Assembly: GCA_000182565.2 (NCBI GenBank)
Contig: KQ257453.1
DNA length: 64,000 nt
Direction: 5' to 3' (one strand)
Source of the DNA: Spizellomyces punctatus DAOM BR117
Lineage: Eukaryota
Part shown: positions 2,130-64,000 of the stretch, in pieces
Layout of the letters: each line of letters starts with the position of its first letter
How positions within the stretch are numbered: the stretch's first letter is position 1
Notes under the pieces: model-generated
Told to the model about the DNA's origin: nothing
The model's database searches: none
Seen by the model: the letters and a program-made list of their open reading frames with translations, nothing else
Position numbers and translations under genes: made by a program

Positions 2130-4565
2130 ATGCTTCGTTTTGCGTCGAGGTCCGCGTCGGCAGTGCGAGGAAAGGCGGGCAGTGCATTCTCCGCACGAGG
2201 TTCGTGTCCATTTGCCGACCTGAAGGGATGATGGGATGGCGATGACACCATCTACGACACCAATGGGCTTATTCTCGTTTATTGCTGCTTCTTTTTTATT
2301 AGGTTCTCGTCAGTTCAGCCGGACACCGACTGCTCTTGCTGAGGTTGAGCTTTTCATTGATGGCAAGGCGGTGAAAATCGAGCAGGGGGCGGCCCTCATT
2401 CAAGCATGTGAAAAGGCTGGTGTGGATATTCCACGCTTCTGCTATCATGAGCGTCTTTCGGTAGCGGGTAACTGTCGAATGTGTCTCGTTGAGCTCGAAA
2501 AGTCTCCCAAGCCCGTTGCCTCCTGCGCTATGCCGGTTATGCCTGGCATGAAGGTGAAGACGGACACTCCTCTTGTGAAGAAGGCTCGCGAAGGTGTTAT
2601 GGAGTTTCTCCTCGCGAATCATCCGCTGGACTGTCCTATTTGCGATCAGGGTGGTGAATGTGATCTGCAGGATCAATCTGTACGATACGGATCTGACCGC
2701 AGTCGCTTTGGGGAATTTGCGGTGGGTAAGCGCGCTGTAGAGGACAAGAACCTCGGCCCTCTCGTCAAAACATGCATGACTCGATGCATTCACTGCACCC
2801 GTTGTGTTCGATTTGCCAACGAAGTGGCCGGCGCCGTTGAGATGGGTACATCAGGACGAGGAAATGATATGCAAATCGGCACATATATTGAAAAGACGAT
2901 CAATTCTGAGATGTCAGGCAACATTATTGACCTTTGCCCCGTTGGTGCGCTGACCTCGAAGCCTTATGAATTCACTTCCCGCCCGTGGGAATTGCGCAAG
3001 ACAGAGTCGATTGATGTCCTCGATGCTGTCGGTAGCAACATTCGCGTGGATTCTAGAGGCTTGGAAGTCATGAGAGTTCTGCCTCGTTTGAACGACGATG
3101 TGAACGAGGAATGGATTTCAGACAAAACAAGGTTTGCCTACGATGGTCTCAAGCGCCAGCGTCTCACTACTCCTATGATCCGCAAAGGCGATGACTTTGT
3201 TCCAGCAACATGGCCTGAAGCTCTTACCAAAATTGCAGACGCTATGGGAGCCGTGAAGGGAGACGAGATGGTGGCGATTGCGGGTCAACTTGCCGATGCG
3301 GAAAGTCTGGTTGCCTTGAAGGACTTGTTCAACCGCAAGGGGTCAGAGAACCTGCGTTTGGATGGACGCAACTCGGACAAACTCGCATACGGTGTTGCGG
3401 ATATCCGTAGCAACTACGTTATGAACAGCACTATTAACGGGGTGGAGGAAGCTGATGCTCTTCTATTGATTGGCACAAACCCACGCCATGAGGCGCCCAT
3501 CGTCAATACGCGTATTCGAAAAGCGTACCTCAACAACAACCTGGAAGTGGGTGTTGTTGGCGCTGCACCCGACCTCAACTATGAGTATGCACATGTGGGC
3601 TCTGACCCCGCCAGTTTGGAGAGTTTGATCAACGGAAAGCATTCCTTCTTTGAAAAGCTCAAGAGCGCTAAGCGTCCCTTGGTAATTGTTGGTAGTGGTG
3701 TGTTGGAGCGTGCTGACAGTGCGGCCATCCTGGGATCTGTGGCGACTTTGGTTGGCAAGCTCCAAAAGACTGCTGAGCCAGGGCACCAGATTTACAATGT
3801 TTTGCACAGGGTATGTCTTGTTTATTGGATTGCTGTTGATGTGGCGTGTGTGGTTAATAGCATCACTCGCTCACTATAGGCCGCCAGCTGGACCGCCGCT
3901 CTTGATATTGGTTTTACTCCCGCGGCTCAGACGGCGTCTGTCAAGCCTCGTTTCTTCTACCTCCTGAATGCTGATGATGTCCTCCCTACCGATATTTCCA
4001 AAGACGCATTTGTTGTGTACCAGGGCCACCACGGTGATAATGGGGCGTACTATGCCGACGTTATTCTCCCTGGTGCTGCCTACACTGAAAAGGCAGTGAC
4101 ATTTGTCAACACGGAAGGACGTACCCAAACGACTCGTGCCGCCGTTGCCCCCATTGCAGGCGCCCGAGAGGATTGGAAGATTCTGCGTGCTCTTTCTGAA
4201 TTGGCTGGAACAACCCTGCCTTACGATGATGTGCACGAGCTCAGACACCGCATGCAGCAAATCTCTCCCAGTTTGGTCAACTACGACCATGTGGAAAAGG
4301 GCACCTTTGTAGAATTGGGATTGTCACAGCTTGCCAAGAACAAGAAAGCTGCGAGTGGGGAGGCATTCGAATTGCCAATCAAGGACTTTTACATGACAGA
4401 CCCCATTTCTCGAGCGTCTGTCACCATGGCCAAGTGCTCTCAGGTATGTTATTGGCCAGCAAATATACTGTTTGGATGTAATATTTAAATGATTCTTTAC
4501 AGGTGTTTACCTATGGGAAGGAGGAGGCAAGTGCCTACAACAAGGCAAAACAAGAAGCTGCATGA
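2130..4565 (+). CDS. NDUFS1: Mitochondrial NADH:ubiquinone oxidoreductase 75/78 kDa Fe-S subunit (4 exons)
   Basis: Arg/Ser-rich presequence [15 protein letters not shown]; Fe-S motifs [55 protein letters not shown]-terminal [18 protein letters not shown]. Confidence 0.97.
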
Positions 4566-14007: not shown

Positions 14008-20395
<6,388 letters not shown>

Positions 20396-34550: not shown

Positions 34551-37500
34551 AGGTGCAATGCTATGTGCAGGCGGTAAGACACCTGGAATGGTACAAGTTG
34601 CATCTCTAGGACCTATGCGTTGCAAGACCTTATCGATCGTAAGCATAGAATTGATGGAAATTGACACTGTGCCTATTATGACGCGGATTCTCATATGTAA
34701 AGTAGTGTCTCTGTAGTTGACCATCTTTTTAAATAGACGGTGTTTCATCCTAATTTTTCAAGTCTATCAAAGAATCTGTCAGGCTGCCATTTCTCAATAT
34801 AGCTTTCTTGACTTGATCCCCGTCTTTTGACGACTTGACTTTTCAACGACTTGGCCAACCCAAGCATTGGCCAGTCCATTGCAAACAAACTTTGGCAATG
34901 AAGAAATGCATAGTTTCGATTTGTATAATGAAAAAGGAATACTGCTGAAATGGGGTTAAAAAATCCAGAAGCTACTGTCGCTTAAAGAGCTTTCGTGCTG
35001 CTGAGGCTTGGGCCTCAAAACTACATTACGTCATCGGCTTTTTAATACTTTCCTTTTTGGTAAGCGCTGATGGCAAATCCAAAACGGGTCAAATTGCTCG
35101 AACCTTTGGCTTGTGTAACGTCTATCCAAGTTACCACACTCGGGTTTGCCCGAAAACACATACTGGATTTGAGTCATGTCTCGACTATCGTCCGCCGATA
35201 AAGTCTTCAAAAAAGAAGATAAAGGATCAAAACGAACAGATACAATCCCCTCAGTCCTTTCATAGAGCTCCCTCATAGGGACATACATAGAGGCAGATTA
35301 AAATGTCCCTCCCACCATTCGACAGAATTACAACGAAGACGAACCTGAACTTGAACCTGAACAAACTAGCCTACAGTCAGCAAAGATAGATTACATGTAT
35401 ATTAGGAACAGCACCACGAGGTTCAGCTTTCTCAACTGGGCTTCCTCTTGGATGCTGTGATTCTACCTGACAAGACTTTTCACCGCGATACTGGTGCAGT
35501 GCCATTCACGATCAATGCCTTCGTCTCTATGGACGACAAGTGTCGGGCGAGCAGCTTGGATATGGCAATCCCGATTGTGACCTTTGCTTTGTTCATTATC
35601 GCGGCTACTTTCACCACTCGCAGTTCCGATTCTTAAAATTCTCGGATTGGTCACTTTTGCGGCCCAAGGGATTACCAAGATTACCGCCATCATCATTGAA
35701 GACGCTCTCCTCTTCGTTCTGCAGAGGGAAAACATCAAACGGTGGCGGAAAGTATTCTCAAGCGTGACGGCATTCTCTCCTCGGCTGGTTGACACGCTGG
35801 CAACAAGCACCTGAATGGCGTCGGAGGGGCCAAATTCCGCAACTAGAACGGCAGACTTAACTTTAATAGCTTTTGTTACTAATGATGTAGAAACCGAAAA
35901 GCAATGACTTTCTTATGTACTGCGGGCACGTTCAACGAGATTTTGGGAACTGACCAGGAAAGCTTTGTCGTGCCGGATAGCTACCAAGATAATAAGCCTG
36001 GCTATTGATAATGATGCAAGAGTATAACTTCCGTTTATGAAGTGGATCATCTGAAAAACAAGGTTCAGAAAAAAGATCAAAAAGGCGCTTTTTGATATGA
36101 TACTAAAACAGCAACAAAAATAATGTAGCAACAGAAACAACAAGATTAACAGGAACAGATTCAGCAGCAGATTGAGCGACAACAGGAACTGGGTACCGAA
36201 GGCAATGCCAGTAGCACTAATTGCACCAATTGCATCTGCAGGCCGCCAGAATCTATCGATAGGAAATTGTTCTGGATCTATGGAAACTAGCTCGTGAAAC
36301 CGCCCTGTAATTGTTGACGACTGATATTTCTCCTTCTCACACTATTTCACATCGAAAGCTATCAGCCACAAGTAAGTTATGAGACAGGAATTAGAAGCGA
36401 AAATATTGAGCTTACACTGCCTCAAATGCTAAAGAACTCCAATTTCAAAACTGGACACGTAAAGGACTGTCGGCGTTCCTGTAATGCTTTATAAAAAATG
36501 TTGCTCAACGAAGAGAATCCGAAAAAGAAATTGTAATACATTGCTGAACATGACGACGATCTCAAGTAATCGGAACAAATTGGGTGACCCATAAACTGGA
36601 GGATAAGAATTTGCCACCGTAGATGATGAACTGCTAAGTAACATACTTTTCTAGTTCTTTCTTAGTAGATTGAAATACGGATGGAAACAGAGCTTTTCTC
36701 GAATATCCACTGCCAGATACGCAGTGCAATTAGATTCTTTAGTATGTAAGAACAAATACATGCTGAGCAACACCTCGCTCTTCAATGTCACCATCTAGTT
36801 GCAGTTCTTCACTTACTCTCGATATTTTCTTTTACAGTTTGTCTTGATCCATTTGTTGATTCTTCCCATATCTTGATGCTCCGCATACCTTGTTCGTGAT
36901 TAAATCAAACACCGGATCGGTTGTATAGGCAATTGTGTAGACATCTGCACTAGTGCTCCCATCTACCTCTTTTCGCAAGGCCTCTAGATATTTTGAACGG
37001 GCTATGTCGACAGCCGTACATATAGCTTTTTGATGGAAAGCATCCAGAATTCTTTGTTTTTTACTAATCGTGAGCATAATTCAGAAGATCCATGCTCTTG
37101 GAGACCCGTACTTTTCTCATCTTGCACTTTTTGCTGCATCTGTTACATTCACAATATTCATGATCATCACATACCGTCCAAAGAACTTCGACAGCATGCA
37201 AGTCGTATACTTTGATTCCCACAAGTGGAGCAATTGTAAGACAAAGTTCTTAAGGACTTTTTACCTGTCTTCGGAGAGATTGTCGATATGACGACAAAAG
37301 TCTCTGCCTTCAGTTACCGTTATCGCATTCAAGTACAGCAACATGACCCTTCAATATCGCCCCATTATCTTCTGATTTTATTGTTTCTTTCTGTGTGAAT
37401 ACTTTTAGCAACTTTTCCCCATCAACAAACATGACGTTTTTCATTTGACAATGTATGCCGACGCAGCTTTTTCGATTATTCGACTACAGACGTAATGATT

Positions 37501-38701: not shown

Positions 38702-41700
38702 ACTTAGTCAAATCGTTCGAGCAGTTGGTACAGATCAGAGATTACTGTATTCTTCCATATATTTCAAGGAGCATAGAGCATTTAGAAAAACCTGCTAACC
38801 ACCGGCATGCATAGATGAATGTATGAATGGACGAAGAGGATAATATGAAATCAATGCTGTTAAACTTGGAATCATCAACCGATTTGCTTTGAATCATTGT
38901 GTCTATGGCGTGAGCAAAAAGAAAGTCAGTGCCCCAAAAGGTTATAAAAAAGGTGCTGGTTCCCACCATGTTAAATATATCCAAACTTGTAGATCTACAG
39001 CAATCCGACAAGTTGCGAATAAAGGTGAGTTACAGCTTCAGTAACGCTTATGAAGCAACTTGTGCACTGAATGGTCTCCTGTGGGACTTCGAGTGGGCAA
39101 TTTTCATGTATTATGTAAATGCTGCAAATAATTGGGAGAAAAGCATGTGGATTTACTTATCCATACATGAATATTGAAGAATACACAACTGCAAAGGAAC
39201 CCTCTATCAATCGGTTGCACACTAGATATCGAATAATCTCTTCTGAGTTGCTTCGACCATTCTGCAGACTCTAGAATAATTAACACTCCACCAATGCCGA
39301 AAGTTTGTCTTGTAGTTAAACCATCTCGTTCCATACCCGCGTACTGCTTTGTTCAACTAGCTGTTCCAAAAGTGTCGTAATGTCGTTCATGGGTTCCTCT
39401 CCCGGTGAGAATGTCTCAGCCCGTCTCATGTACAACTGAATTAGTCTGCCCCATCTCCCTAAGGACTAAATGACAATATGCGTGACATTTACGAACCAGC
39501 CGGTCTTTGCTGATATTCGTCTCCCATACTCCAAAGTTGAACGCAATCTCCTCTAAAATTTCCAATAAATCACTCACGCTGCATCTTTAAAAGAAGGGGT
39601 TTACGCCGTTTTGAACGAAAAGCCAGGTATTTAGAGATTTAACAGAGACCTCATTCTCATGGTTGAAATGCGATAACATGGCCTCGCTGTTCTCAACATC
39701 ATAGGCCGATAAGCATATTTCGTCCTGAATTATGACCTCCTCTGGTATGTGAAAATAACACGGCACTAAAGTTTGTGTCTTGCTGGATCATAGCACCACA
39801 CCATTTCCAAGCATGAATGGGATCCACAATACTTTCTGCTGCCTCGATTCTGCAACCAGAACAGACATGTTACTCCTGTCTTGTAGTTTCTGGCATGACT
39901 ATCTACTATTACCATGACGAATTTAATAATATATAATCCAAAGGACTGCTACGAATCTGAACTAGAAGCAAACTACATTCAAAATGTGAACCATTTCTAC
40001 CAAATTCCCGAAAGAAACAAATATGGCCATTTTCAAGAAGCATTTGCTGAATATCTATCTAAAAAGTATTAGAAAATATCACCATAAGTTGGTCAATGCA
40101 ATTTTCCATTGGAAAAGTGGTTAAAAAAAGGTGCGTTCGTGCGTTCCATTAAAGCAATCAGAAAGGAGATATTGAAGTAAGAGCCAGAGTGGGTCAAAAG
40201 AAGCGTGAATTCCCATCGAGATACAGAGAATATTAGATCAAAGAGGAGACAATAAGTGAACCACTCATCGAGAGTTGAGTGAATCCTTGTTTTCATGTTC
40301 AAGTTCTCGTCTTCCTTGTATGCATCGTGATCTCAGTCGTTTTGGAAAGACAGGCATATTATTTGCAGGGTGAAATCTATTCAGAGCTTCGGCTTCCAGT
40401 CGCTGAAGAAGAAAGCAAAACGTCCTGCCCTGAAGAAGCTGCATTCCACCCAGATTGCTCTAATCCATGCACCTGCGACTGTCTATCGATGAGTGAGAAA
40501 GTGGCTACATTGGCCATAGTTGTAAATCGCAGATTCATATCGTGAGTAAAATTGAATATGCACAACCTCTGCGACGTTCGCCGTCACAAAAGAAATCGAT
40601 CCGGGGATGTGAGTTCTAGATAAAGACGACTGGTATTTGCGAGGAGACAGCGAAGATGATGCGGCCAAGTGTTCGGGCTAGCAAGGTTCCTACGTGGTAA
40701 AAGAGAAAGAGAAAGTCCTTTGTGCCCTATCTGGCATCACGAAACGCTTGAAGTCCATATCTGGGTATCACAAGAGTGAACTGGAACTGACAAAACTCTT
40801 TGATTGCAATATAAACAACATGTTGAAAGAAAGGGAGCACAACGATCATAAACGATCTTGGGAATTTGCTTGCGTGGTGTCCAAAAAGCATCATCTTATG
40901 AAATCGTAAGATAAACAAAGTTAGTTTTAGGCTTTTATTCCGATGTAATACTGGCAAGATGCTAGTTAATATATTTGAAGGTAAAAGTCATAAAGCCAGG
41001 AAAGAAGCGGGAGCAGTGACCATTTGAAGCTCTTGTTGGAGGCAATGTGAGGATTGTACGAGATGTCAAGTATATATCTCGCTGCTTTAGTGTGCAGTCC
41101 GCTCAAATTGTAACTAGAAAAACAAATCTGCCTGCCATGAGATATGACAATATGCTCATACTGTCGACATCCGTACTACGCCTTAAAGAACTTTATCAAG
41201 GGCAGTTATACATATGCCGCCCTCTTCGTTCCCAACAGCTAACAGCTATAAAGAAGCGGGGTGAGGCTGAATACATATCTGTTGCAGAATGGTGCTTATC
41301 AATAGATTTATGATAGTGACTTGAACCCGCGGCTGCCAACTCGCATTCCTTACTGCAAACGAACATCTATGGATGAACAAAGATTAGAGAAAACCAGTGC
41401 CGCCCAGGTTGAGCAGAACCATTTAAACGTATCTACGTATGAACTACTGCTCTTGGGGATATTATAAGATGAATAAGGATAAAGAATTACAACCTTTTTC
41501 AAAATGGAAGCATGGTTCTGACACCAGAAATAAACAGAACGATGATCTAATCTGATTAACAACTGCAAAAATGGTTATTGCCAATGCCACGACCACTGCA
41601 GTTCCTAGCAGCATCGTGGAGCTGGACAGGGATCCGTTACGTTCTGCCGTGAAAGAGTACGAAATGATCGAAAGCCATGATGATAAGAATATTTTATCGC

Positions 41701-44700
41701 CTGTGGGAGTGCTTGGACAGATTTCATTGATACTTGCCGCATTGGAAATATGGCACCTTTCCCACCCAAGCATGGAATCAATGATATAGTCGAAAGAGAG
41801 AAGCGAGACAAGAGGCAACAGTGCGATCGATGCAGCAGTTGGGGCTTTCCGCTGTAAACAATCAAGAAACCCCACGGCGCGACTCAAAGAGAAAGGTTCG
41901 TCGGAGGATGCAGAGATCAATGGAATCGGTAATGAGCAAAATCCCAGGCAATGATGCGATAGAAGATCATGAGCAAAGTCCGAAAGTTTGCGGAGGAAGA
42001 TTCGTGGCAAAGCATTTTGCATTCGAACGTAGGATGATAATCTCAGTATCTGTTTCTTCTATTGTGAGTTACTTAATCTGCAACATTGTATGCACCTGTT
42101 CATTTGTTCCTTTCTTTGACCTTTTGCACCTTGTACTCATGCCCTTCGCATTTGCACTTGGAATCAGCAAGAATTGGAGCAGCATGAACGATGACAATGA
42201 CGATGAAGAAGAAGACCGTATGGAGGAGAACACAGTGAGAAACGACAACAGAGAAGAAGACCAGGAGGTAGATGGAGACGAGGAAATGGCTGGGCAGGAA
42301 GACGAGATTATTGAGAAATGCATTTGTCAAAGAAAGACCATAGAAAAGGTTCAATTCCCACATTGAAGACATTATTTTGCATTTAGAGTTTACGTTGAGA
42401 ATGTACTCAAACAAACGAAAAATAAAAACAGGCTCTGAACAAGGAACCGGGATATGTGACGAGGTATCCTCTCCTTTCTTTACAGGTAGACGATATGCTT
42501 CCTATTAGATGGGGATAGATGCTGTTCCTTGTAGTTTCAGAAACCAGGAAGACCAGCGAGGATATAAACGGGATTACGGAATGGCGAATGCAGAATCTAT
42601 TGGATTCTCGTAACATTGCGTTTTTGTAATTACGAATGAACACAGGATCCATTGCCTCTAGGTTTACAGAACTATATTGTGAGTACATTGATGTTAACCC
42701 GGCGGTTCTCCTGAAACTTGGAAGTATGTGGAAATCATTATCTCGGAAATCCGTCGTAGATACAACTAGCCTACTGCAGTCTCTGAGGGTAAGATATGCT
42801 TGCTGCATTGCGACTTTTACATTGCCCGTACTTGATAGAAATTACTCTGTTGAACTCAAACTAAGCGTGGCGATTGCTTATGGAAGAATCAGAGTACAGG
42901 CATCCCAAGTTTCCTGTTTCCTTTAACTCAAGCAACATCAAAGGAATCGGAGTCAACTCTGGAGACTGAATACTTTACAAACATTGCTGGATGAAAGAGA
43001 TTTATGGAAACAGAGCGGTTGTTAGATTCAATACATATCCGGGCCGATTATGCATTTGCGAAGGAGAAGAAAGGCAACAAATTCCTGAGAAAGATGCTCG
43101 AGAAGAGTCTTGTGAAGGTTACGAATTCAGTACGAGTCGGTGTCCTGTCAATTGAAGGCTAACATAACTTTTTGAAACCTATTCGTATGCACCTGTTACT
43201 GAATTCTGCAACAAATGTACGCCGCTAGTCATCTTGCGTCGATACAACGCATAGACAACTGATGATGAGGATGGTGAAGATCTTGTTCGAAATCGAAGGA
43301 TAGCCAAAGTCCTAGATATGCAATCTGATGAAAGTTTGGCCAGCTAATTAACATAATGGAGACCCCAAATCCAGAGACTTTAAATGACAAGACGTCAGGA
43401 GCAAGGAACAACCGGGTTTTATGGTATGAGGAATCTTGCTAAACAAAGTGCATGCAGATGGGATCCGTGTTAATTCTGTGGCACTATTCTGATGCCATTG
43501 CAATCGGTGTCCAGAGGACGAGAAAACCACAAAAAGTTCTACAGGGTGAGCCGTCGTTCGTCCAGGACGGGTAGGCCAACCGTTCGTTAAACCCTAAAAG
43601 AACTTGCAATTTCTTGCTTATCCTAGTTGGATTCTTAGAAGACAGATCATAACGTTGGAGAGATTTCAAATCTACCGGTTACATGTTGCATCTGGTAGCA
43701 ATCACTGCCGGGACTCCACCATTCCCAAAGTGGTGTACGTGATGCAAGACGGATCATTTGTAAACTACACGACTCATTCGGTGGGTATCTGTACGTACCG
43801 TACTGACATTTGAATCCAGATTCACTTCCACAGTAGGGGAATAGTTGGGAGCAAATCAAATCATAGCACTTCTGGGTTCTATTGAAGGGCACGTTGTTTG
43901 GTTCGAATATCTGCTTGCTCAGCCCATGAAAGTGAAGATGCGGGAACGTTTTGAAGGAAAGCTCGACCGTCCAATGGTTACCTGGATCCATATCTTAAAT
44001 GCTGGTTTTCAAGCAATGAATGATGTATCTCTTTTTCACGCAGTTACTTGGATATCTCATTGTAAGCGGAAAGTATCCAGATAACATAATGAACTAAGTT
44101 TCCTACCGATAGACTTAGAAAGCACTGCTTGAAGAATCCAAGCGGGTAGCGAGGCTTGCAAGCTCTCATCCATTTTCCATCGAAGATAATTGTTACGATC
44201 TTCCGACTACGTTATTACCGCAAATGTGATTCCTCAAAGGGCCAAACCTCGCAGGTTCAGCTTCATACTTGGGCGTCGACATTGACGCTCCTCCTACCTG
44301 GTAGCCGGTGCCGAACAAAGTCAACAAGAGTCCTACTATGAACAAGATCGTAGCCAGTCTGTTGCTGATCACAAGACTGGACATCGGCAGTTTGCATTGT
44401 ACATACTCGGGTTCCTTTCGAAATTCCTCTATTTCCTTGAGTGTATCTTCACAAAATGAGCAAAAGCATGCTCCGGAGGCTTCAAAAGCCAGTCGCTGAT
44501 CTGGCCCCCCAAAGGAACAAGAGATTTCTAAGCCCAAACCGACTCGCAAGAAGACGACTGCTTACCAAGTTGCTTGGAAGAACTAATTGCACAGAAGAAG
44601 AAAGAGGCGGCGAAAGCGGTTTTGCGTGCCATATACAGCAAGGGATGCCCAGGTTTTATTTTGCTATTTGACAAGAGCTGAATGGCGACGTTTTGCCTCC

Positions 44701-48186: not shown

Positions 48187-50037
48187 TCATCTGATCGCCA
48201 TTCTCCTGTACGCATTAACCAACTCATCCTCAACGTCTTTCTCTCCAACAGATTTTCCACACTTTCCGCCCTTTTTCTTGGCCTCCCAAATTTTCCAAAA
48301 CTTGAGGTTCTCATCGCTTGCGCCGGTCGCTACCGTTTGACCATCAGGGCTTAAGGCTGTGTGAAGAACACGAGCATCATGGCCTTCCAAATCACCAATC
48401 TTGGTCAGTGACGGATATTTCCATATTGAAAGGTGATTGTTGGGAAATCCATGAGATGTGAAAAATTCCTTATATTCCAGAGACCACAAGATGGACGTGA
48501 CTTGAGACCCAGTGTCAACCGAGGCAATTTTTCCAGTGGTGGAAACGTTCCAAAAGTGAACTGTACGGTCGTGGGAACCTCCTCCTGTCGCCAGAGTGTT
48601 CAACTGCCATGGACACCATGCAAGCGCCTAGGTTTGAATAAAGCGGAGTCAGTACGGTGATGAGTTTTCTAAGAATAGGCGACTTCCTTACCTTTACTGC
48701 AGCGGTATGCTCTGCCTTTGTGAACTTAGGAAGACTCGATCTAGCATCCCATATGACAACCTGATTGTCATTTCCTCCACTTGCCAGGAACTGTCCATCC
48801 GGCCTCCACTTCAGCCCACAGACATCGGACTCGTGAGATAGCAAAGAGGCCACCCGATGATTAGCCAAACGCACATCATGATTCCAAATACTGCCATCGC
48901 GGGCGCCCGAGGAGAGTACATTGGTATCCCAGGCAAGAACACCAACCCTGCTAGCCCTTCCTCGCATGGTTCGCATCTTTTTCAAACTTTCGAGGCTCCA
49001 TATTTCTATATCACCCTCGCTCAGACCCACTGCCAAATGACTTCCGTCGGGTGCCCATTGTAGAGATGCCACGTATGTATCCTCCCGGGTTACCGAGCAA
49101 AGTGGCGCTGTTTTACCCGTATTGCCGTTCCAAAGATATACGGTATTGTCAAGAGCGATTGCTAACATATTGTTCGCCGACCAGTCGATCAAATTCAAGT
49201 AGAAATCGTCAGAGAGCCCTGGAGCATCCAAAACCTTCTCCGGTTCCGATTTCACGCGCCTTGCTGCAACGGTAGAGTTGGGTTTGCGGAGTGGTCTACT
49301 CCAGGATGTGCGAAAATCTTGCCGCTGGGCTGCTGGAGGTTCTGCATTGAACGCTAAAATGCGCTTATCTAGAGCCACGCCGCACGCTTTAGCGACCTGC
49401 TCTTGGTATGCTAAAGTGTCCGGATCCAAAGTTTTCAGCTTTTGCCGATCTGTGGTGTCTCGAATATTGAACTGTGAGGATGCTCGATCGATAGCGTCTT
49501 GACTTGGCACAAATCGGTCATACTACATAAGGAGAATTGTGCGGTTAGCTGTCTGAATTGCACAATCAAGGCCTATCCAGTGATCCTCTAATCCATTTCT
49601 ATATCAAACGAGATGTTCATCTCTTCTATTTAAACAGCTGTGTTCAGACCTACCATCCTTTCTTTTGCTTTTCCCCTTTTGCCACCACCACTCGGACTGA
49701 CAGCCGCGACGCCCAATCGCTGCTTAATAAAGTTCTCTGCATTTCTCCCACTTATAACAGACGATCGTGGTGAATGCCCTAATCCAGTAGCATTATAGCT
49801 GCGCGGAGAGCGGGTATGGGCGACGGACGGTGAAGCACCTCCAGCTGAAGGACGGGTCGGTGTGCGACCGTGAACATGAAGACGGTCAGCAAAGCTGCGA
49901 GTTGGAGTTCCAGCAATCCGGCCAGCTGTACTCTTTCGCCGTGGAGTTTCCATAGTTTCCCTGACTCTGCGAGCTATCTGAGGGCTCATAGGGTTGAGAC
50001 CTGTCTGGAGGTCCTTGGAGATGCTTGGGGGCGGCAT
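48187..50037 (-). CDS. CDC20: APC/C activator Cdc20/Fizzy (WD40), 3 exons
   Basis: C-box YDRFVPS, KRILAF (KILR-like), VLDAPGLSDDFYLNLIDWS, LASGGNDN, GASDENLKFWK, C-terminal IR tail (MAIR). Confidence 0.95.
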
Positions 50038-59062: not shown

Positions 59063-59902
59063 TCATGTAGACATATTATGATTGGGAAGGATTCAAGGTG
59101 GTGACCGGCAAGGAAAGGTATCCAAGAAAGACAAATAGATATAGACAAATGGACACAATAGACTATTCTACTTCACGTTAGGGTAGCTCTCATGGTGCTT
59201 TTCAGAATATGAGATGGAATAACTTCCACAAGTGTAACTAATACGAGGCTATAGGGGAACGGGTGAAGTAAAGTAAAACCTGCGAACTGACTCTTTTGGA
59301 AAGGGCTTTTATGTCTAGCTACGGCCGTTGCGCACAAATCCCTTTTGGATGGATCATATCTTACCCAGGCAAGACGTTTAGAAGTGAAGGCGGGTTCGGA
59401 ATATTGTCCTTTGATAAATAAACTGCCAGAACCCTTGTGTTCTCTCTACCTATGGAAAAGATTTTTGGATACTGACTCAACTGCTACACTAAGCTTGCGA
59501 ACGAGAACTGCTAAGAAGGGACTACCGAAATCTGGGTCTTTGGGGTTAGAGTGCTCCCGAGAATGTCCAAGAGAGATGAGGTACTCACGAGACAGCCGCC
59601 AGGTTAAAGCTGTCCACACTGCTTTCACGTGCAGTTGCGCAATCGGATGCAGCAAACTTGATCAAGAGGACTTCGTGTGCATGCAGGCGTTCTGAGACCC
59701 GCCAGAAGTCGTCAGTCGTAGATCAGTTTTCAGAGGACCTGTTGCAGATGGTTCATCAATCCGAGACCTGAACTACCCGCTAGGTAAAGCGTGCCAGTCA
59801 TGTTATTTAAGTGGAGCGGAGGTTATGGTATAGCGTACTTCCCACCAGTGTCCATCTACAAGTACCCTCGACATTTGTCGCCTTTTTAACTCATTTGCGG
59901 CC

Positions 59903-62601
59903 TCACAGTTTGTGCACACTGCAATATTTGCGGCCGGAGTATGTGCGTGTCGGACAAGGCTGGTCTGTACGAGGGCCACTGACAAATACATGATGGCACT
60001 GCATGCACGACTTTCTGCCAGGCTTTGCCTCTCGGCTACAAGGTTGTCGGTCACCTGTTCGATTAATGGAGTAAGAAGTGAATCTCAAAAGGGAAAACTG
60101 AACTAAGAATTGCTATGCACTGACCGCACACTTTGTTACACAGTAGCTGTTGCGTTGCCAATGTTGCTGGAGCACGATGTGAAGCAACCTTCTGTTTCTT
60201 CTTGATCTTCTTATCTGACTCGCGTGCTGCGCACACGCGTTTCTTGGAGTCCGTATCCTTTCCATCGTCCTCTCCATCATCTGCTTCATTGAAGCTATAC
60301 TCCTCCGGCACATACTTGTCGTCTGCCGTCATATTCGCCAAATCATTTGGCAGAGTGCGATTCAATCGTTCCTCGTCTTCTTCATCTTCCTCATCTTCAT
60401 CTTCCTCAATCTCCTCAGAGTTGCTGGCACCAGCGTTTCTCGGACGTCTTCCAATGGTTGCTGGAGGGTTTACCTTGTAGATTTCGGCTATGTACTTCAA
60501 CAGCTTCGCATGGCGTTTCTCGAATTCCAAACAAGTCCACTGTTGATCGGCTTTCACAAGTGTCATGGTAGTGAGCGCGAAGGGGACCATCTCCCCTTTC
60601 CGATTTTCAGTATAGATATCCTTCTTAGTCGCCCATGGGGCGTTCGAGCACTGAATGTTCGTAGAAGCGGGAAGCAAGCATAGGTTGCCGAGACGATTTG
60701 TATTCCCTTGAAAGTCGATTTTGTCCCACGCACGTCCGGGGTTTTGAGGATAGATGTGTTCGATCTGAACCTTCTCCCAATCATATGCCACTTTAGTGGA
60801 AGACATCTCCGCATTAATTCGACGAAGTATATATTGTGTAGCGAAGATGCCTGCTCCGCCATATAGATTGCCATTAATGCGCGTAAGGAAAACTTTAATT
60901 TCTTGAGGCCTAGGTTCGAGCGCCGTACAGACCATCTCATCACTACGAGCGGTCGCTATGTCCTGAGGAACATTGAATATTAAACAAAAGAAACTAGTGA
61001 CTGACTTATATTACCATTACCTTCAGAATGTCATAAAATCGGATGATCAGTTTTTCCTTTAGTGAATCCACTCCTTTGCGGGGTTGCTTGTAGCCCACAA
61101 ACAGGACTGCTATCAGTTTCTCTAGTCTATTCCAAAACTCCTCCTGTTGGAGAAGCTTAATATTGAACTTTCCGGCCGCCAAGGCTACAGTAAGCCACGT
61201 GCGCCAAAGCAAGCCAATATCGAAAGTCGTTTTGAGATGAATGCGCGACTTATTTTCTCGAACCTGGGCCCAATCCAAGGCAGTACGACTAGGTTCCATG
61301 ATGGAACGCCATAAGACTGAGTGCGTCTTGATCTTGTCGATCAGGATTCCGGGGGTCAATGTATCGAACATGTAACGGTGATAAGGTGAATTTGTGTTCC
61401 CTAATGAGGCAGAGAAACTTAACAGAAAGCTCGACTTCTGTGCAGTACCAGCCATTTCGATGCGGTATAGATGGTCAAGAAGTTCGCTGAAATTCTGCAA
61501 ACTAAGAGTTATAACTATGCCGCCCCTCTGCTTCAGGTAAAAAGTGCACATACTGCTGTATTGCCAAGTTGTTTCTCGGCTTTAACCCACTGCCCAACTT
61601 TCAATTCATATCCATCTCCGACAGAAGCCTTTAGCTTTCCAAAGGTGACGGCTTTGAGATAATCCACTGGCGTTAAAGGTACACCGGGCACGTTTAAAGA
61701 AGTGAAAATGCGGTATGCTGAGTCCACGTCATGAGTATAAATAACGAGAAAGCGACACCGCTTATAAAAATAGTGTGCTAGTTTCTCCCTGATGGCGATG
61801 TGGCCTGTTCAGCAACCGTCCAATGCTGCTGATGCTTCAGCACTAACCTGCTTTCCCGTTCCATGTTCTCTAGAATGCCCGCCAACTCGCGCACGTTTTC
61901 GCTGAGTAACTCGACAACAGGACGAGCATCTCGATCCGGAACAGCGAGTTCATAATCTTTGTCTAAGTGCTCCTCTAAGTCTGCCGGGTCAAGGAAATGG
62001 TCGCAGAAAGCTTGGTGATACGGCGCAGCAAGATTTAACCGATACGTGAAGTAATCTTTCGGAACCGCACTCTTTATCCATTTGGTATAAACTTGCTTCT
62101 GGTTCGGTGGTGCGAAATGCCGGAAGACGGAAAGGAGCAATATCATAGTAGTTAGGCGTTGTTGACCATCCACTATATCAAGTACTCGTTTGCTGTTCTG
62201 CTGAGGAGCCAACACAATTGTACCGAGAGGATGATATGGCGCACGTTCTTTGCATGCATCGTGCACATCGCTAAGAAGCCGTGTTACCATCTGTGGAGTC
62301 CAACAGTATCGTCTTTGGTAAATCGGTACTGAAAGGATAATCTGCTGATGTTTTGTTGTTTCACCGAAAATGCCTTTCAAGCGCTTTTCGGTGAACAACT
62401 TATCATTGTCCTCACCAAAGAGTTGCGCGAGTGTACAATCTCGTACGTCTCTTATCGCGGTTTGATGCTTTTAGGTATATAATATGAGTTAATTGCCCTG
62501 GGAAGTCCAGCAAAGGAAAAACCATTTACCTGCTGGGCTCCGGCCATATTTCCTTGACCCTGATTTTGGCGACGAGGATGATGTCCATTTGCTGTCCCCA
62601 T
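59903..62601 (-). CDS. GmrSD-like protein (DUF262 + DUF1524 HNH nuclease) with acidic/basic linker and C-terminal WRC-like zinc fingers; 6 exons, ~796 aa
   Basis: Exons 62601-62530, 62467-61848, 61788-61554, 61494-61021, 60962-60125 and 60054-59903 join in frame via GT-AG introns; DUF262 motifs VPIYQRRYCW, IVDGQQRLTT, AYRIFTSLNVPGVPLTPVDYLKA; DUF1524 motifs IEHIYPQ and NRLGNLCLLPASTNIQCSNAPWATKK. Confidence 0.9.
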
Positions 62602-62886
62602 CTCATCGGAAAATAGTTGGCCACTCCATTCCCTTACGTAATGACTGGATACTATATCAAAAGCTCGCACATCTGACACAATCCTGGATGCAGATGTGCC
62701 CTCACCACAGGAGAGTTTACCTTAGGGCAAGCTGTCCAATTTCGGTGTTTTGCAGCCAAAACCATGCATCCTGAGCCAGAATCGTGATTAAACTAGATTT
62801 TGACACAATAGAGGCACTCAGTTTGAACATAGCCCTAGATACAAGACCACCTTTCAATGCCAGAAAGCCCCAAGTTGTCATATGCA

Positions 62887-63329
62887 CTAATTTCCGATTG
62901 CTCTCGAAATATCAGCAACTACATCAGAGGGATCCTTGCCTTCCTCCACCTCCAAAACCAGCTTCCCATACGGCCCACTGGCGTTCAACATGATCTGGAT
63001 GGTGCGCGCTGGGTCATTGGTGTAGATGAAATCTGGCTTTGTCCTCCAATGATAAAACGTTCCTTTTTTCAAATATGCATAGAATGATGGTGTTAACTTC
63101 AGAGGCCGCTACCTGAACAAAATGCCTACCAACCTGCTATAAGACCGTGAGGTATAACAACCCCATACCTGGTGGTATACCAAGGCACGGAGACATTAGC
63201 ATCTACCCTAACAGAGTCGATCTCCGAGAGCGGAACGGTGAGATCAGTAAAACGCCCACACAAGAATTTCTGCAGCATCGTAAGGGACACCGTCAGATGA
63301 GAATCAACAAGGGTGATTGCTACGGGCAT
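62887..63329 (-). CDS. Small bacterial-type hypothetical protein (PH-like fold), 123 aa, 2 exons (63329-63134, 63062-62887)
   Basis: Spliced product ...LTVSLTMLQKFLCGRFTDLTVPLSEIDSVRVD...RYGVVIPHGLIAGTFYHWRTKPDFIY...YGKLVLEVEEGKDPSDVVADISRAI resembles a bacterial small-protein pattern (L.vPL..I.sV...R..G..lP..i..Gtf...Y..lvv.v.dP..v...I); recognised from memory. Confidence 0.65.
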
Positions 63330-63363
63330 CGTGCAATATTGTAGGGCACTTGTTCATGACGGC

Positions 63364-63381
63364 GTCCTTTTATAAAAGGAC
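63364..63381. promoter_or_regulatory. Perfect 18-bp palindrome GTCCTTTTATAAAAGGAC containing a TATA box on both strands
   Basis: Self-complementary by direct reading; starts ~35 nt upstream of ATG 63329 on the minus strand. Confidence 0.6.
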
Positions 63382-64000
63382 CAATTCCTTGAGCCCTTGT
63401 GTGACTGATCCACATATACCACTCGACCACACAATGACTTTACAGATTGACATATTCTTGGGAATTGAAATACGCATCAATTGAAAAATGCGTGAAGTCA
63501 GTGGTGGGCCTCAGTAATTACTGCCCAAATTCGCACTTTGCTGTTCGCTATGAATAATGGTCTTCCTACGTTCGCCGTGTCTTCCATTGCACATAAGTGG
63601 CTCATTACCAGTTCGTGGTTGCCACGGTTCAACTGCGGGTGCCGGGGAGCCACGCCTCACTTGGCTCGCTCTGGCGGTATGGGAATTGCATTGCTTCCAA
63701 GTGAACAGTGATTGAGCACTTCCCATGAGGCTTCTTCTACGCCCAACTAAACTGTGTTGATTAGGTGAAGACCAATTCGGCTAGTGGCACAGTCATGTTG
63801 TCTTTGGCCCAGTCATGGCACATTTAAGGTTTTAAACTTTAAAAGTGGTATGCCAACCCCGATTTGCGACCGCTGGTGCCAGACGGCTAGAGGCCTTCAT
63901 TGCTGCACATCCACAAAGCCGACGAACCAACGAACAAGCACCTGCACACAGCATGTGCATATAATAAAAGTAGAGGAGTCACTGCGCTGACGTGTAGTGA

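Follow-up and report, generated by a model that had tools for sequence, protein, structure and literature searches.

Does a zoosporic fungus keep a working relative of the bacterial nucleases that tell DNA apart by its modification state, and if so, what might it be used for? The question is raised by a gene on the minus strand of positions 59903-62601 in a stretch of 64,000 nucleotides from the soil chytrid Spizellomyces punctatus DAOM BR117; "the window" here means that whole stretch. Many animal and plant immune modules trace to bacterial anti-phage systems. To our knowledge, modification-discriminating restriction-type nucleases are not among the established eukaryotic immune examples. The gene at this locus, SPPG_03059, is real, intact and transcribed; it is old, of prokaryotic-type ancestry, already annotated and unstudied. 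What is new is the carrier of this canonical catalytic core of the GmrSD-like type: a eukaryote-adapted family that bears introns, has paralogs and includes a C-terminal module that lacks a name. By analogy with the characterised relatives, a role in defence may reasonably be inferred. Given the other bacterial defence modules present in eukaryotes, such a role would not be very surprising, yet the case is concrete and testable, in a group of fungi that has recently yielded DNA viruses.

Gene structure and transcripts

The gene comprises six exons and five GT..AG introns. Its coding sequence of 2391 nt yields 796 residues and a single terminal stop, the frame staying open for 796 codons across the six exons. 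Because the spliced translation matches the public protein SPPG_03059 (P0001) letter for letter, the gene model is right and already forms part of the public annotation of this strain, where the product is called "uncharacterized protein" or "DUF262 domain-containing protein". The original prediction, a frame of about 796 residues assembled from six exons across five introns of 58-70 nt, is thus identical to the public model. Exon 2 as the sole query retrieves a public protein of 796 residues at 100% identity, on a 1.74-Mb contig. The parts of the gene are the following; AF2 denotes AlphaFold2, pLDDT the predicted local distance difference test, NTP nucleoside triphosphate and NLS nuclear localisation signal.

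62530..62601, minus strand: exon 1, residues 1-24, a poorly conserved N-terminal extension; ATG at 62601-62599
62468..62529, minus strand: intron 1, 62 nt, GTAAAT..AAG; flanking residues conserved in the Geranomyces protein model
61848..62467, minus strand: exon 2, first part of the DUF262/GmrSD_N (ParB-like NTPase) domain; Pfam PF03235, E 5.5e-22
62156..62170, minus strand: DGQQR motif, residues 124-128, the family's NTP gamma-phosphate/hydrolysis motif; 140-member alignment and mutants of relatives
61789..61847, minus strand: intron 2, 59 nt, GTTAGT..CAG, within codon 231 and the DUF262 domain
61554..61788, minus strand: exon 3, end of DUF262 (F259..N263 motif) and start of the helical linker; PF03235 profile positions 153-197
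61495..61553, minus strand: intron 3, 59 nt, GTATGT..CAG; junction 309/310 colinear with bacterial homologs
61021..61494, minus strand: exon 4, helical linker between the two domains; AF2 helices 271-504, high pLDDT
60963..61020, minus strand: intron 4, 58 nt, GTAATG..CAG; junction 467/468 in a variable loop, no frame-breaking gap relative to homologs
60125..60962, minus strand: exon 5, DUF1524/GmrSD_C HNH nuclease domain, acidic tract and basic cluster; PF07510, E 1e-18
60495..60842, minus strand: DUF1524/GmrSD_C HNH (beta-beta-alpha-metal) domain, residues 508-623; 64.3 bits
60747..60761, minus strand: EHIYP motif, residues 535-539, catalytic acid and His of the HNH site; 140-member alignment
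60369..60416, minus strand: acidic Glu/Asp tract, residues about 650-665; composition, pLDDT below 50
60189..60245, minus strand: basic Lys/Arg cluster, residues 707-725, bipartite-NLS-like; composition
60055..60124, minus strand: intron 5, 70 nt, GTCAGT..CAG; exon 6 module common to paralogs
59903..60054, minus strand: exon 6, Cys/His-rich tail; stop codon 59905-59903
59912..60007, minus strand: Cys/His module C-x2-C-H-x13-C-x10-C-x2-H, residues 763-794, putative zinc-binding
59800..59902, minus strand: 3' untranslated region, approximate; sense-read depth

The ATG at 62601-62599 is the first in-frame ATG past an upstream stop, and the Geranomyces model begins at the equivalent of M19. Splicing at junctions 2, 3 and 4 makes the protein colinear again with bacterial homologs that have no introns. 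Taken exon by exon, PF03235 is matched in two parts, by exon 2 (E 5.5e-22, profile 11-108) and by exon 3 (E 1.5e-06, profile 153-197), and splicing of intron 2 merges the two partial matches into one of 109.8 bits. Retention of intron 5 would end the product at 766 residues. Support for its removal is indirect, through exon 6, which encodes a Cys/His module that recurs in fungal paralogs.

The RNA evidence comes from run X8, with 162 reads of 60 nt obtained from about 6% of the run. The sense of the reads was judged by T-runs ahead of 62765, which represent the poly(A) tail of the upstream minus-strand gene. Sense depth is 12.2 over 59908-60011, 15 over 59804-59907 and 3.5 over 59700-59803. 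The accumulation of sense reads over the last exon and the 3' untranslated region (depth 12-15 over 59804-60011) is the reason for regarding the gene as transcribed. A check of the five predicted junctions against RNA found no annotated joint among the X8 reads of this roughly 6% sample, so the introns rest on continuity of the frame, colinearity at junctions 2-4, the module in exon 6 and identity with the public model.

Exon 2 is also covered by environmental root metatranscriptome contigs (run X1) over 62086-62469, each with 0-1 differing letters. Contigs from X2 and X3 are read as genomic, since they are unspliced through introns 2-4. One X1 contig skips 62291-62415 within exon 2, a stretch of 125 nt that is bounded by GT..AG on the minus strand; the skip has a depth of 2, with 29 letters on its shorter side. 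It would shift the frame and remove the region of the QR motif; possible explanations are an infrequent splicing error, a non-productive isoform and an artefact of the assembly.

Two further features of the reads concern the surroundings of the gene. The poly(A) site of the upstream minus-strand gene is marked by the T-runs that precede 62765-62769, and depth there reaches 21.8 (62765-62800); the frames of that gene, at 62887-63780, have no Pfam match. Since this site lies only about 164 nt from the ATG, the promoter region of SPPG_03059 must be very short. Within exon 5, at 60636-60843 over the HNH domain, some X8 reads run in the opposite direction (first mate on the plus strand) and reach a depth of 2.4-3 where sense depth is 0. 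They may reflect a weak antisense transcript or library noise.

Catalytic core and C-terminal tail

The spliced protein scores 109.8 bits against GmrSD_N/PF03235 over residues 64-278 (cut-off 33.2) and 64.3 bits against GmrSD_C/PF07510 over residues 508-623 (cut-off 23). The domains follow one another in N-to-C order and are joined by a helical linker of high pLDDT, residues about 279-507. GmrSD-like proteins have been delimited by just this arrangement, two domains with an alpha-helical linker of some 200-400 residues between them (Machnicka 2015). No NCBIfam family model is matched by the protein.

Conservation was assessed in an alignment of SPPG_03059 with 139 relatives, 140 rows in all. 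The motifs Q75-R76, V123-D124-G-Q-Q-R128, F259..N263, E535-H536-I-Y-P539, G559-N560-L561, N569 and N574 are present, and every family-wide catalytic position checked is kept (Q75, R76, D124-R128, F259..N263, E535, H536, N560, N569, N574 and K580). In the DGQQR motif D, G, Q and R are invariant among the 140 members and the second Q is found in 99%; F259 and N263 are likewise invariant, and E535 and H536 are each 98% conserved. The fused DUF262-DUF1524 architecture with intact motifs, as first proposed from the letters of the window, is therefore confirmed by the Pfam scores and by the 140-row alignment. The catalytic core is canonical, and its motif residues are those of a putative NTPase and nuclease.

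The AF2 model, built from the 140-sequence alignment, has a mean pLDDT of 77.2 and a predicted TM score (pTM) of 0.76, with confident residues from about 65 to 635. The HNH region shows strands at 532-536 and 561-565, followed by a helix at 566-572. The ten best Foldseek matches in the PDB are all chains of DndI, SspE or BrxU, nine of them at E <= 0.001; the tenth is the SspE C-terminal domain at E 1.4e-03. Whole-chain TM values of 0.2-0.5 are low, as expected of flexible two-domain proteins. All features of GmrSD-like membership that could be tested, namely both domains, their order, the linker, the motifs and the fold, are present in SPPG_03059.

Could the gene be a decaying or inactive relic that is transcribed and no longer encodes an enzyme? 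Such a state would fit the sparse RNA across most exons in the single run that was sampled and the one frame-breaking joint, and also two signs of loss elsewhere in the family: the HNH His is missing from three source-unnamed rows of the clade, and one Rhizophlyctis paralog has DGQCR. Against decay stand the 796 codons of open frame across six exons, the retention of every catalytic position, and an identity of 60-64% to the Geranomyces ortholog over 92% of the length. A relic is highly improbable.

Beyond residue about 635 the model is disordered, and pLDDT in the tail is below 50. The tail contains three recognisable elements. Its acidic tract is found also in the tails of the Geranomyces, Gaertneriomyces and Paraphysoderma proteins. 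The basic cluster is conserved in the Geranomyces ortholog, three paralogs have basic C-terminal clusters, and the composition of the cluster suggests a bipartite NLS. The third element, C-x(2-3)-C-H-x(5-15)-C-x(6-12)-C-x2-H, occurs in four of eight fungal family proteins, in five copies, and in none of the 378 other proteins compared. To judge from its composition, this module may bind zinc. It matches no Pfam family (the best model is a zinc ribbon at E 0.31), and in the ESM Atlas the best score of 0.78 lies under the threshold for a lead, with no cluster that names the module. Tails of the same kinds are present in the Gaertneriomyces, Paraphysoderma and S. punctatus paralogs.

The S. punctatus paralog SPPG_08139 (P0169) has 1065 residues, with DGQQR and EH intact. 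It carries two copies of the Cys/His module, beginning at residues 932 and 998, and then a strongly basic end. In the Geranomyces variabilis protein HDU89_000947 (P0002) the C-terminus is a short stretch with Cys that lines up with S. punctatus intron 5 when this intron is read through; the annotation of that protein has probably missed the last intron and the Cys/His exon. A "cysteine-rich repeat" described as a marker of horizontal gene transfer (bioRxiv 10.64898/2026.06.07.730663) was considered as a counterpart of the module and proved unrelated, with other Cys spacing and in secreted proteins. The available part of that preprint contains no mention of DUF262, nucleases or Spizellomyces.

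Fungal family, origin and chromosomal setting

A HMMER pass over 1.84 billion representative sequences gave 10378 matches at E <= 1e-3. Membership of fungi was established from the names looked up for 20 of these matches and from the named hits of similarity searches. At least nine loci were found in five zoosporic fungi of two phyla:

Spizellomyces punctatus: SPPG_03059 and the paralog SPPG_08139 (1065 residues)
Geranomyces variabilis: one ortholog, 60-64% identical over 92% of the length
Rhizophlyctis rosea: one ortholog, 40-42% identical, and one paralog
Gaertneriomyces sp. JEL0708: two paralogs, and one ortholog split into two adjacent models
Paraphysoderma sedebokerense: one member

By NCBI taxonomy the five species span Spizellomycetales, Rhizophlyctidales and Blastocladiomycota. 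The adjacent Gaertneriomyces models HDU85_001636 and HDU85_001635 (P0120 and P0122), of 261 and 147 residues, are 43% and 58% identical to parts of SPPG_03059 and are probably one split gene model rather than two genes.

All other relatives that bear names are bacterial or archaeal. The closest named prokaryotic proteins have about 560 residues and are intronless; one example, L004, is flanked by bacterial ABC-F, SDR and seryl-tRNA synthetase genes. Full-length identities of 22-31% are found alike in Cyanobacteriota, Actinomycetota, Pseudomonadota, Planctomycetota, archaea and phage-like contigs. Close chytrid orthologs are absent from the metagenome contigs searched, where the best of 466 confirmed relatives are 29-30% identical over the full length and intronless. 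Searched with ortholog-specific patterns, viral sequences gave 119 pattern matches, none of which was confirmed; with clade-wide patterns 150 of 386 were confirmed, all distant and on phage-like contigs. Among the 120 matches listed for a 12-row clade profile there are only three orthologs, bacteria and one archaeon, a search that says little on absence since it scored just the 8000 candidates sharing most words and missed known clade members. A Foldseek comparison with BFVD shows that the giant viruses Harvfovirus, Yasminevirus, Hyperionvirus, Mimiviridae sp. ChoanoV1, Hokovirus, Indivirus and Catovirus carry DUF262 or DUF262-DUF1524 proteins of the same fold, with E down to 5e-14.

Three trees were built from full-length rows, fragments below 400 residues being excluded: a FastTree tree of 145 rows, an IQ-TREE LG+C20 tree of 49 rows, and a FastTree tree of 80 rows to which 24 named prokaryotic and seven viral rows were added. 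All are unrooted. In each of them eight full-length fungal rows and five source-unnamed rows form a single clade with support of 99-100, and in the 80-row tree none of the 24 named prokaryotic rows and none of the seven viral rows falls inside it. Constraining the eight fungal rows to stand together gave a better likelihood than the free quick search and was not rejected (p-AU 0.746, approximately unbiased test). The five source-unnamed rows, one from ENA/JGI and four AT-rich, leave doubt as to what borders the fungal group. In the AT-rich sub-clade (P0132, P0206, P0175 and P0192) K, N, I, Y and F make up 36-40% of residues. P0132, P0206 and P0192 have Phe or Tyr in place of the HNH His, and in them GmrSD_C is weak or undetected; P0175 has a GmrSD_N match only and lies outside that alignment. 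The nearest ESM Atlas clusters of this sub-clade are mostly Bacillota, a lead only.

The fungal proteins form a small clade whose long stem lies within a huge prokaryotic and phage family, and their genes show introns, host-like composition and paralogs; a single old acquisition with later duplication fits this pattern, and a bacterial or phage origin fits a family that is overwhelmingly prokaryotic apart from this one small clade. The original proposal of horizontal acquisition is thus upheld insofar as a small fungal clade lies in a prokaryotic family. It does not extend to a singular or recent event, as paralogs occur in at least five fungi, and it comes with no donor: among the named prokaryotic and viral rows none is sister to the fungal clade, and no donor lineage can be named. 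The phylogeny with bacterial relatives that had been suggested as a test of nesting gives a similarly divided answer. The fungal clade is well supported and has no named prokaryote inside, and the trees are unrooted and offer no sister donor.

The chromosomal setting is ordinary. The G+C content (GC) of the gene is 0.466, that of the window 0.467. Pfam scans of window open reading frames (ORFs), 17 at first and then 47, identify as neighbours an NDUFS1-like complex I subunit, Pex24p, aminopeptidase P, a GCN2-like kinase and an amino-acid permease, together with genes for LRR_9, Duc1, CDC20/Fizzy and a PH-domain protein. Among the scanned ORFs of the 64-kb window no transposase, integrase or capsid domain was found; with ordinary eukaryotic genes as neighbours, an obvious mobile-element setting is excluded. 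The introns, the GC of 0.466 against 0.467, the housekeeping neighbours and the 1.74-Mb contig also confirm the original view that the gene is eukaryotic. Contamination by bacterial DNA is ruled out by the introns, the housekeeping neighbours and the host-like GC.

Elsewhere in the window, the NDUFS1-like gene lies at 2224-4485 and CDC20/Fizzy at 48187-49522, an ordinary chromosomal context. A multi-exon GCN2-like gene at 14163-20392 on the plus strand encodes protein-kinase, HisRS-like and anticodon-binding domains. Between 36001 and 44000 GC falls to 0.40-0.42, from about 0.47 elsewhere, and long frames in this low-GC stretch have no Pfam match (four at 41465-42841 and two at 35466-36341).

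The setting bears on the idea that the gene is cargo of a mobile element or an endogenised virus and serves that element, for example by excluding competitors or by addiction. Family members do travel: 150 of the 386 pattern matches on phage-like viral contigs were confirmed, giant viruses of the Mimiviridae group carry members (Foldseek against BFVD), and the bacterial family typically resides on mobile defence islands (PMC4619093). SPPG_03059, by contrast, is flanked by ordinary genes (CDC20/Fizzy, the PH-domain protein, the GCN2-like kinase and NDUFS1) with no transposase, integrase or capsid domain, has the GC of its window, possesses a one-to-one ortholog in another family of the order, and belongs to a fungal clade that includes no viral row. 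A cargo function can be given very little credence.

Possible function and known relatives

The reading preferred here, to which we assign a probability of roughly 0.45, is by analogy with the HEC-06/BrxU type: SPPG_03059 may be an old, domesticated GmrSD-like enzyme that acts on its own in the nucleus as an NTP-gated HNH nuclease against foreign DNA. In the distant past a bacterium or a virus would have passed the gene to an ancestor of these zoosporic fungi, after which the gene would have gained introns, duplicated, and acquired the acidic tract, the NLS-like cluster and the Cys/His module. In the nucleus, NTP binding and hydrolysis at DGQQR would gate engagement of DNA, and the HNH site at E535/H536 would nick or cut DNA that differs from the host's in modification state. 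DNA of giant viruses or mobile elements is a candidate target, and the Cys/His tail might add targeting to DNA or chromatin. Three points favour a stand-alone logic: no partner system is known, the window contains no linked modification gene, and a validated stand-alone system is among the closest PADLOC models. Plausible targets exist, as zoosporic fungi are subject to persistent infection by giant viruses (PMC13533422).

Several observations weigh against this proposal. No splice joint of the gene model appears among the sampled X8 reads, in which exons 1-5 have a depth of 0-3, and the sole joint reported, an omission of 62415-62291 by one X1 contig, breaks the frame. The nuclear and zinc-binding readings of the tail derive from composition alone, in a region with pLDDT below 50. 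Beside the FxxxN motif, R265, present in 90% of the 140 members, is replaced in all eight fungal rows and in the four source-unnamed rows aligned with them, the residue in SPPG_03059 being Pro; the replacement could alter the NTPase or a contact with DNA. The host's own DNA is rich in N6-methyladenine (6mA; PMC12695648), so that self DNA would have to be spared by any modification-dependent nuclease of loose specificity. DndI and SspE, the nearest relatives with solved structures, depend on a partner modification system, and it is unmodified DNA that they cut. Finally, giant viruses carry DUF262-DUF1524 proteins too, so that the gene may have entered by way of a virus.

Some of the same features would suit a domesticated enzyme that retains its NTPase and HNH activities and has been put to a nuclear task other than defence, in repair, recombination, chromatin or development. 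The family has a long history, includes paralogs and has been retained by vertical descent across orders; the gene sits among housekeeping genes; the tail modules are eukaryote-specific and possibly chromatin-associated; and fungus-specific substitutions, such as that at R265, occur at sites conserved in the family. Among named matches, however, eukaryotic members are seen only in zoosporic fungi, with varying numbers of paralogs, and all characterised members of the family in the literature examined are defence enzymes. A core repair factor is disfavoured because wider retention would be expected of it. On balance a non-defence role is unlikely, and it deserves to be kept in mind.

A different form of immunity is suggested by DndI, the closest solved relative by sequence and by fold, with SspE next. 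DndI is an NTPase and a nickase, and phosphorothioate (PT) on self DNA stimulates its ATPase and frees the enzyme from the DNA (PMC11662687). By extension, SPPG_03059 would bind DNA in general; a host mark, perhaps 6mA rather than PT, would stimulate its NTPase and release the enzyme, and only unmarked incoming DNA would be nicked. The high 6mA of S. punctatus (PMC12695648) agrees with such self-mark sensing, as does the finding that giant-virus regions integrated in Allomyces have less 6mA than the host chromosome (PMC13533422). So does Y74, in P-x-Y-Q-R, which aligns with the PT-sensing Y25 of DndI (Y30 of SspE), a residue that lies in a hydrophobic patch; this Tyr is kept in 89% of the 140 members, however, and is therefore not diagnostic of PT sensing. 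Identity to DndI is only 16-17% in the fold alignment, sensing of 6mA by a GmrSD-like enzyme is unreported in the literature examined, and no partner genes of the dnd or ssp type were found among the scanned ORFs of the 64-kb window. Self-mark sensing is accordingly considered quite unlikely. A fuller version, in which 6mA defines self in a restriction-like nuclear immunity, under-marked mycodnavirus or transposon DNA is nicked, and the Cys/His tail tethers the enzyme to chromatin or DNA, is more doubtful still. If true, a 6mA-gated nuclease would be the first modification-gated restriction system in a eukaryote and would give eukaryotic 6mA at active genes a direct functional role in the discrimination of self from non-self.

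Other outcomes would also be informative. An active and modification-specific enzyme could find use as a reagent, and one taken over for a different nuclear task would illustrate the taming of a defence nuclease in a eukaryote. S. punctatus is reportedly amenable to genetic transformation. With persistent giant viruses, high 6mA and a transformable species, zoosporic fungi are a good test ground, and the question whether eukaryotes use restriction-like nucleases against DNA invaders becomes directly testable.

Eukaryotic members of this family have been recorded before, chiefly as numbers. GmrSD homologs were counted in three eukaryotic genomes among 613 complete genomes with homologs, and Thalassiosira oceanica is named in a figure legend on such homologs (Machnicka et al. 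2015). A table row for DUF1524 gives 28, 12124, 174 and 263 sequences, the last presumably Eukaryota (Jablonska et al. 2017). These records and those from giant viruses describe no zoosporic-fungal clade, paralogs, introns, tail or eukaryotic function. In the literature examined, fungal or eukaryotic GmrSD-like proteins, their paralogs, tails and function appear only as counts in passing; the supplementary tables, which lie beyond that coverage, may list SPPG_03059.

Among characterised proteins DndI comes first in sequence (phmmer against the PDB, E 4.4e-17) and in fold (Foldseek, 9jfl, E 1.3e-13, target-normalised TM (TMt) 0.52). The Salmonella enterica Cerro 87 enzyme (PDB 9JFL) shares with SPPG_03059 the order DUF262, linker, DUF1524, with DGQQR and HNH sites. 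It differs in being intronless, with 596 residues and no acidic, basic or Cys/His tail, and the 16-17% identity mentioned above is a measure of the distance. DndI also acts together with IscS-DndBCDE phosphorothioation and spares PT-marked self DNA, whereas no partner is seen for SPPG_03059 in the window. SspE (PDB 6JIV, 7DRS) has the same architecture and forms the second-best fold group (E 5e-12). It needs SspABCD phosphorothioation, has 771 residues and a different linker, and its TM of 0.27-0.30 is low partly because of domain arrangement. Modification domains of dndBCDE or sspABCD were not found among the scanned ORFs of the window, where eukaryotic genes of one system need not be linked.

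The defence-system profiles of PADLOC point in a similar direction. The best match is Orf5 (PDLC02686, E 3.6e-51, model positions 7-565 of 566), followed by HEC-06 (7.7e-48) and SspE (9.4e-26), and the top 25 matches all belong to Orf5, HEC-06 and SspE models. The prokaryotic proteins of about 560 residues nearest the fungal clade match the Orf5 and HEC-06 models as well, P0117 at 7.7e-146. HEC-06 is a stand-alone GmrSD-like phage defence embedded in Hma systems, and its activity is lost on mutation of DGQQR or of E471/H472 (bioRxiv 2024.01.29.577857). It has the DGQQR and EH-x-x-P motifs found in SPPG_03059; unlike the fungal protein it is prokaryotic, intronless, about 560 residues long and located in defence islands.

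GmrSD (E. coli CT596 / Eco94GmrSD) and BrxU (PDB 7P9K), type IV restriction enzymes that cleave DNA with modified cytosines in an NTP-dependent manner, contain the same two Pfam domains in the same order, and the HNH site. In BrxU, NTP hydrolysis at the DUF262 site precedes cutting by the DUF1524 HNH domain of DNA with 5-methylcytosine (5mC), 5-hydroxymethylcytosine (5hmC) or glucosylated 5hmC (glc-5hmC); phage defence is lost when DGQQR or D474/H475 is mutated, and no recognition pocket is identified in the available part of the report (PMC8565348). HEC-06, GmrSD and SspE are stated to lack the RLFDS motif that BrxU has (bioRxiv 2024.01.29.577857). BrxU is absent from the phmmer PDB matches at E <= 0.01, among which DndI and SspE are present, and by fold it is only distant (E 1.2e-05, TM about 0.2), ranking below both. 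SPPG_03059 is therefore nearer to the DndI, HEC-06 and SspE branches than to GmrSD sensu stricto and BrxU.

It follows that the specificities of GmrSD and BrxU for glc-5hmC, 5hmC and 5mC cannot be transferred to the fungal protein. The original prediction had likened it to GmrSD/SspE-type nucleases, with GmrSD cutting sugar-modified hydroxymethylcytosine (glc-hmC) DNA, and had suggested that it may act against modified viral or mobile DNA; because the nearest characterised relatives are DndI, HEC-06 and SspE, and not GmrSD proper, a specificity for glc-hmC is unsupported. Cutting modified DNA is just one of two logics, since DndI and SspE spare modified self and cut unmodified DNA. By analogy with these systems, the family may be viewed as a single engine that serves two opposite ends, the cutting of modified DNA and the sparing of marked self.

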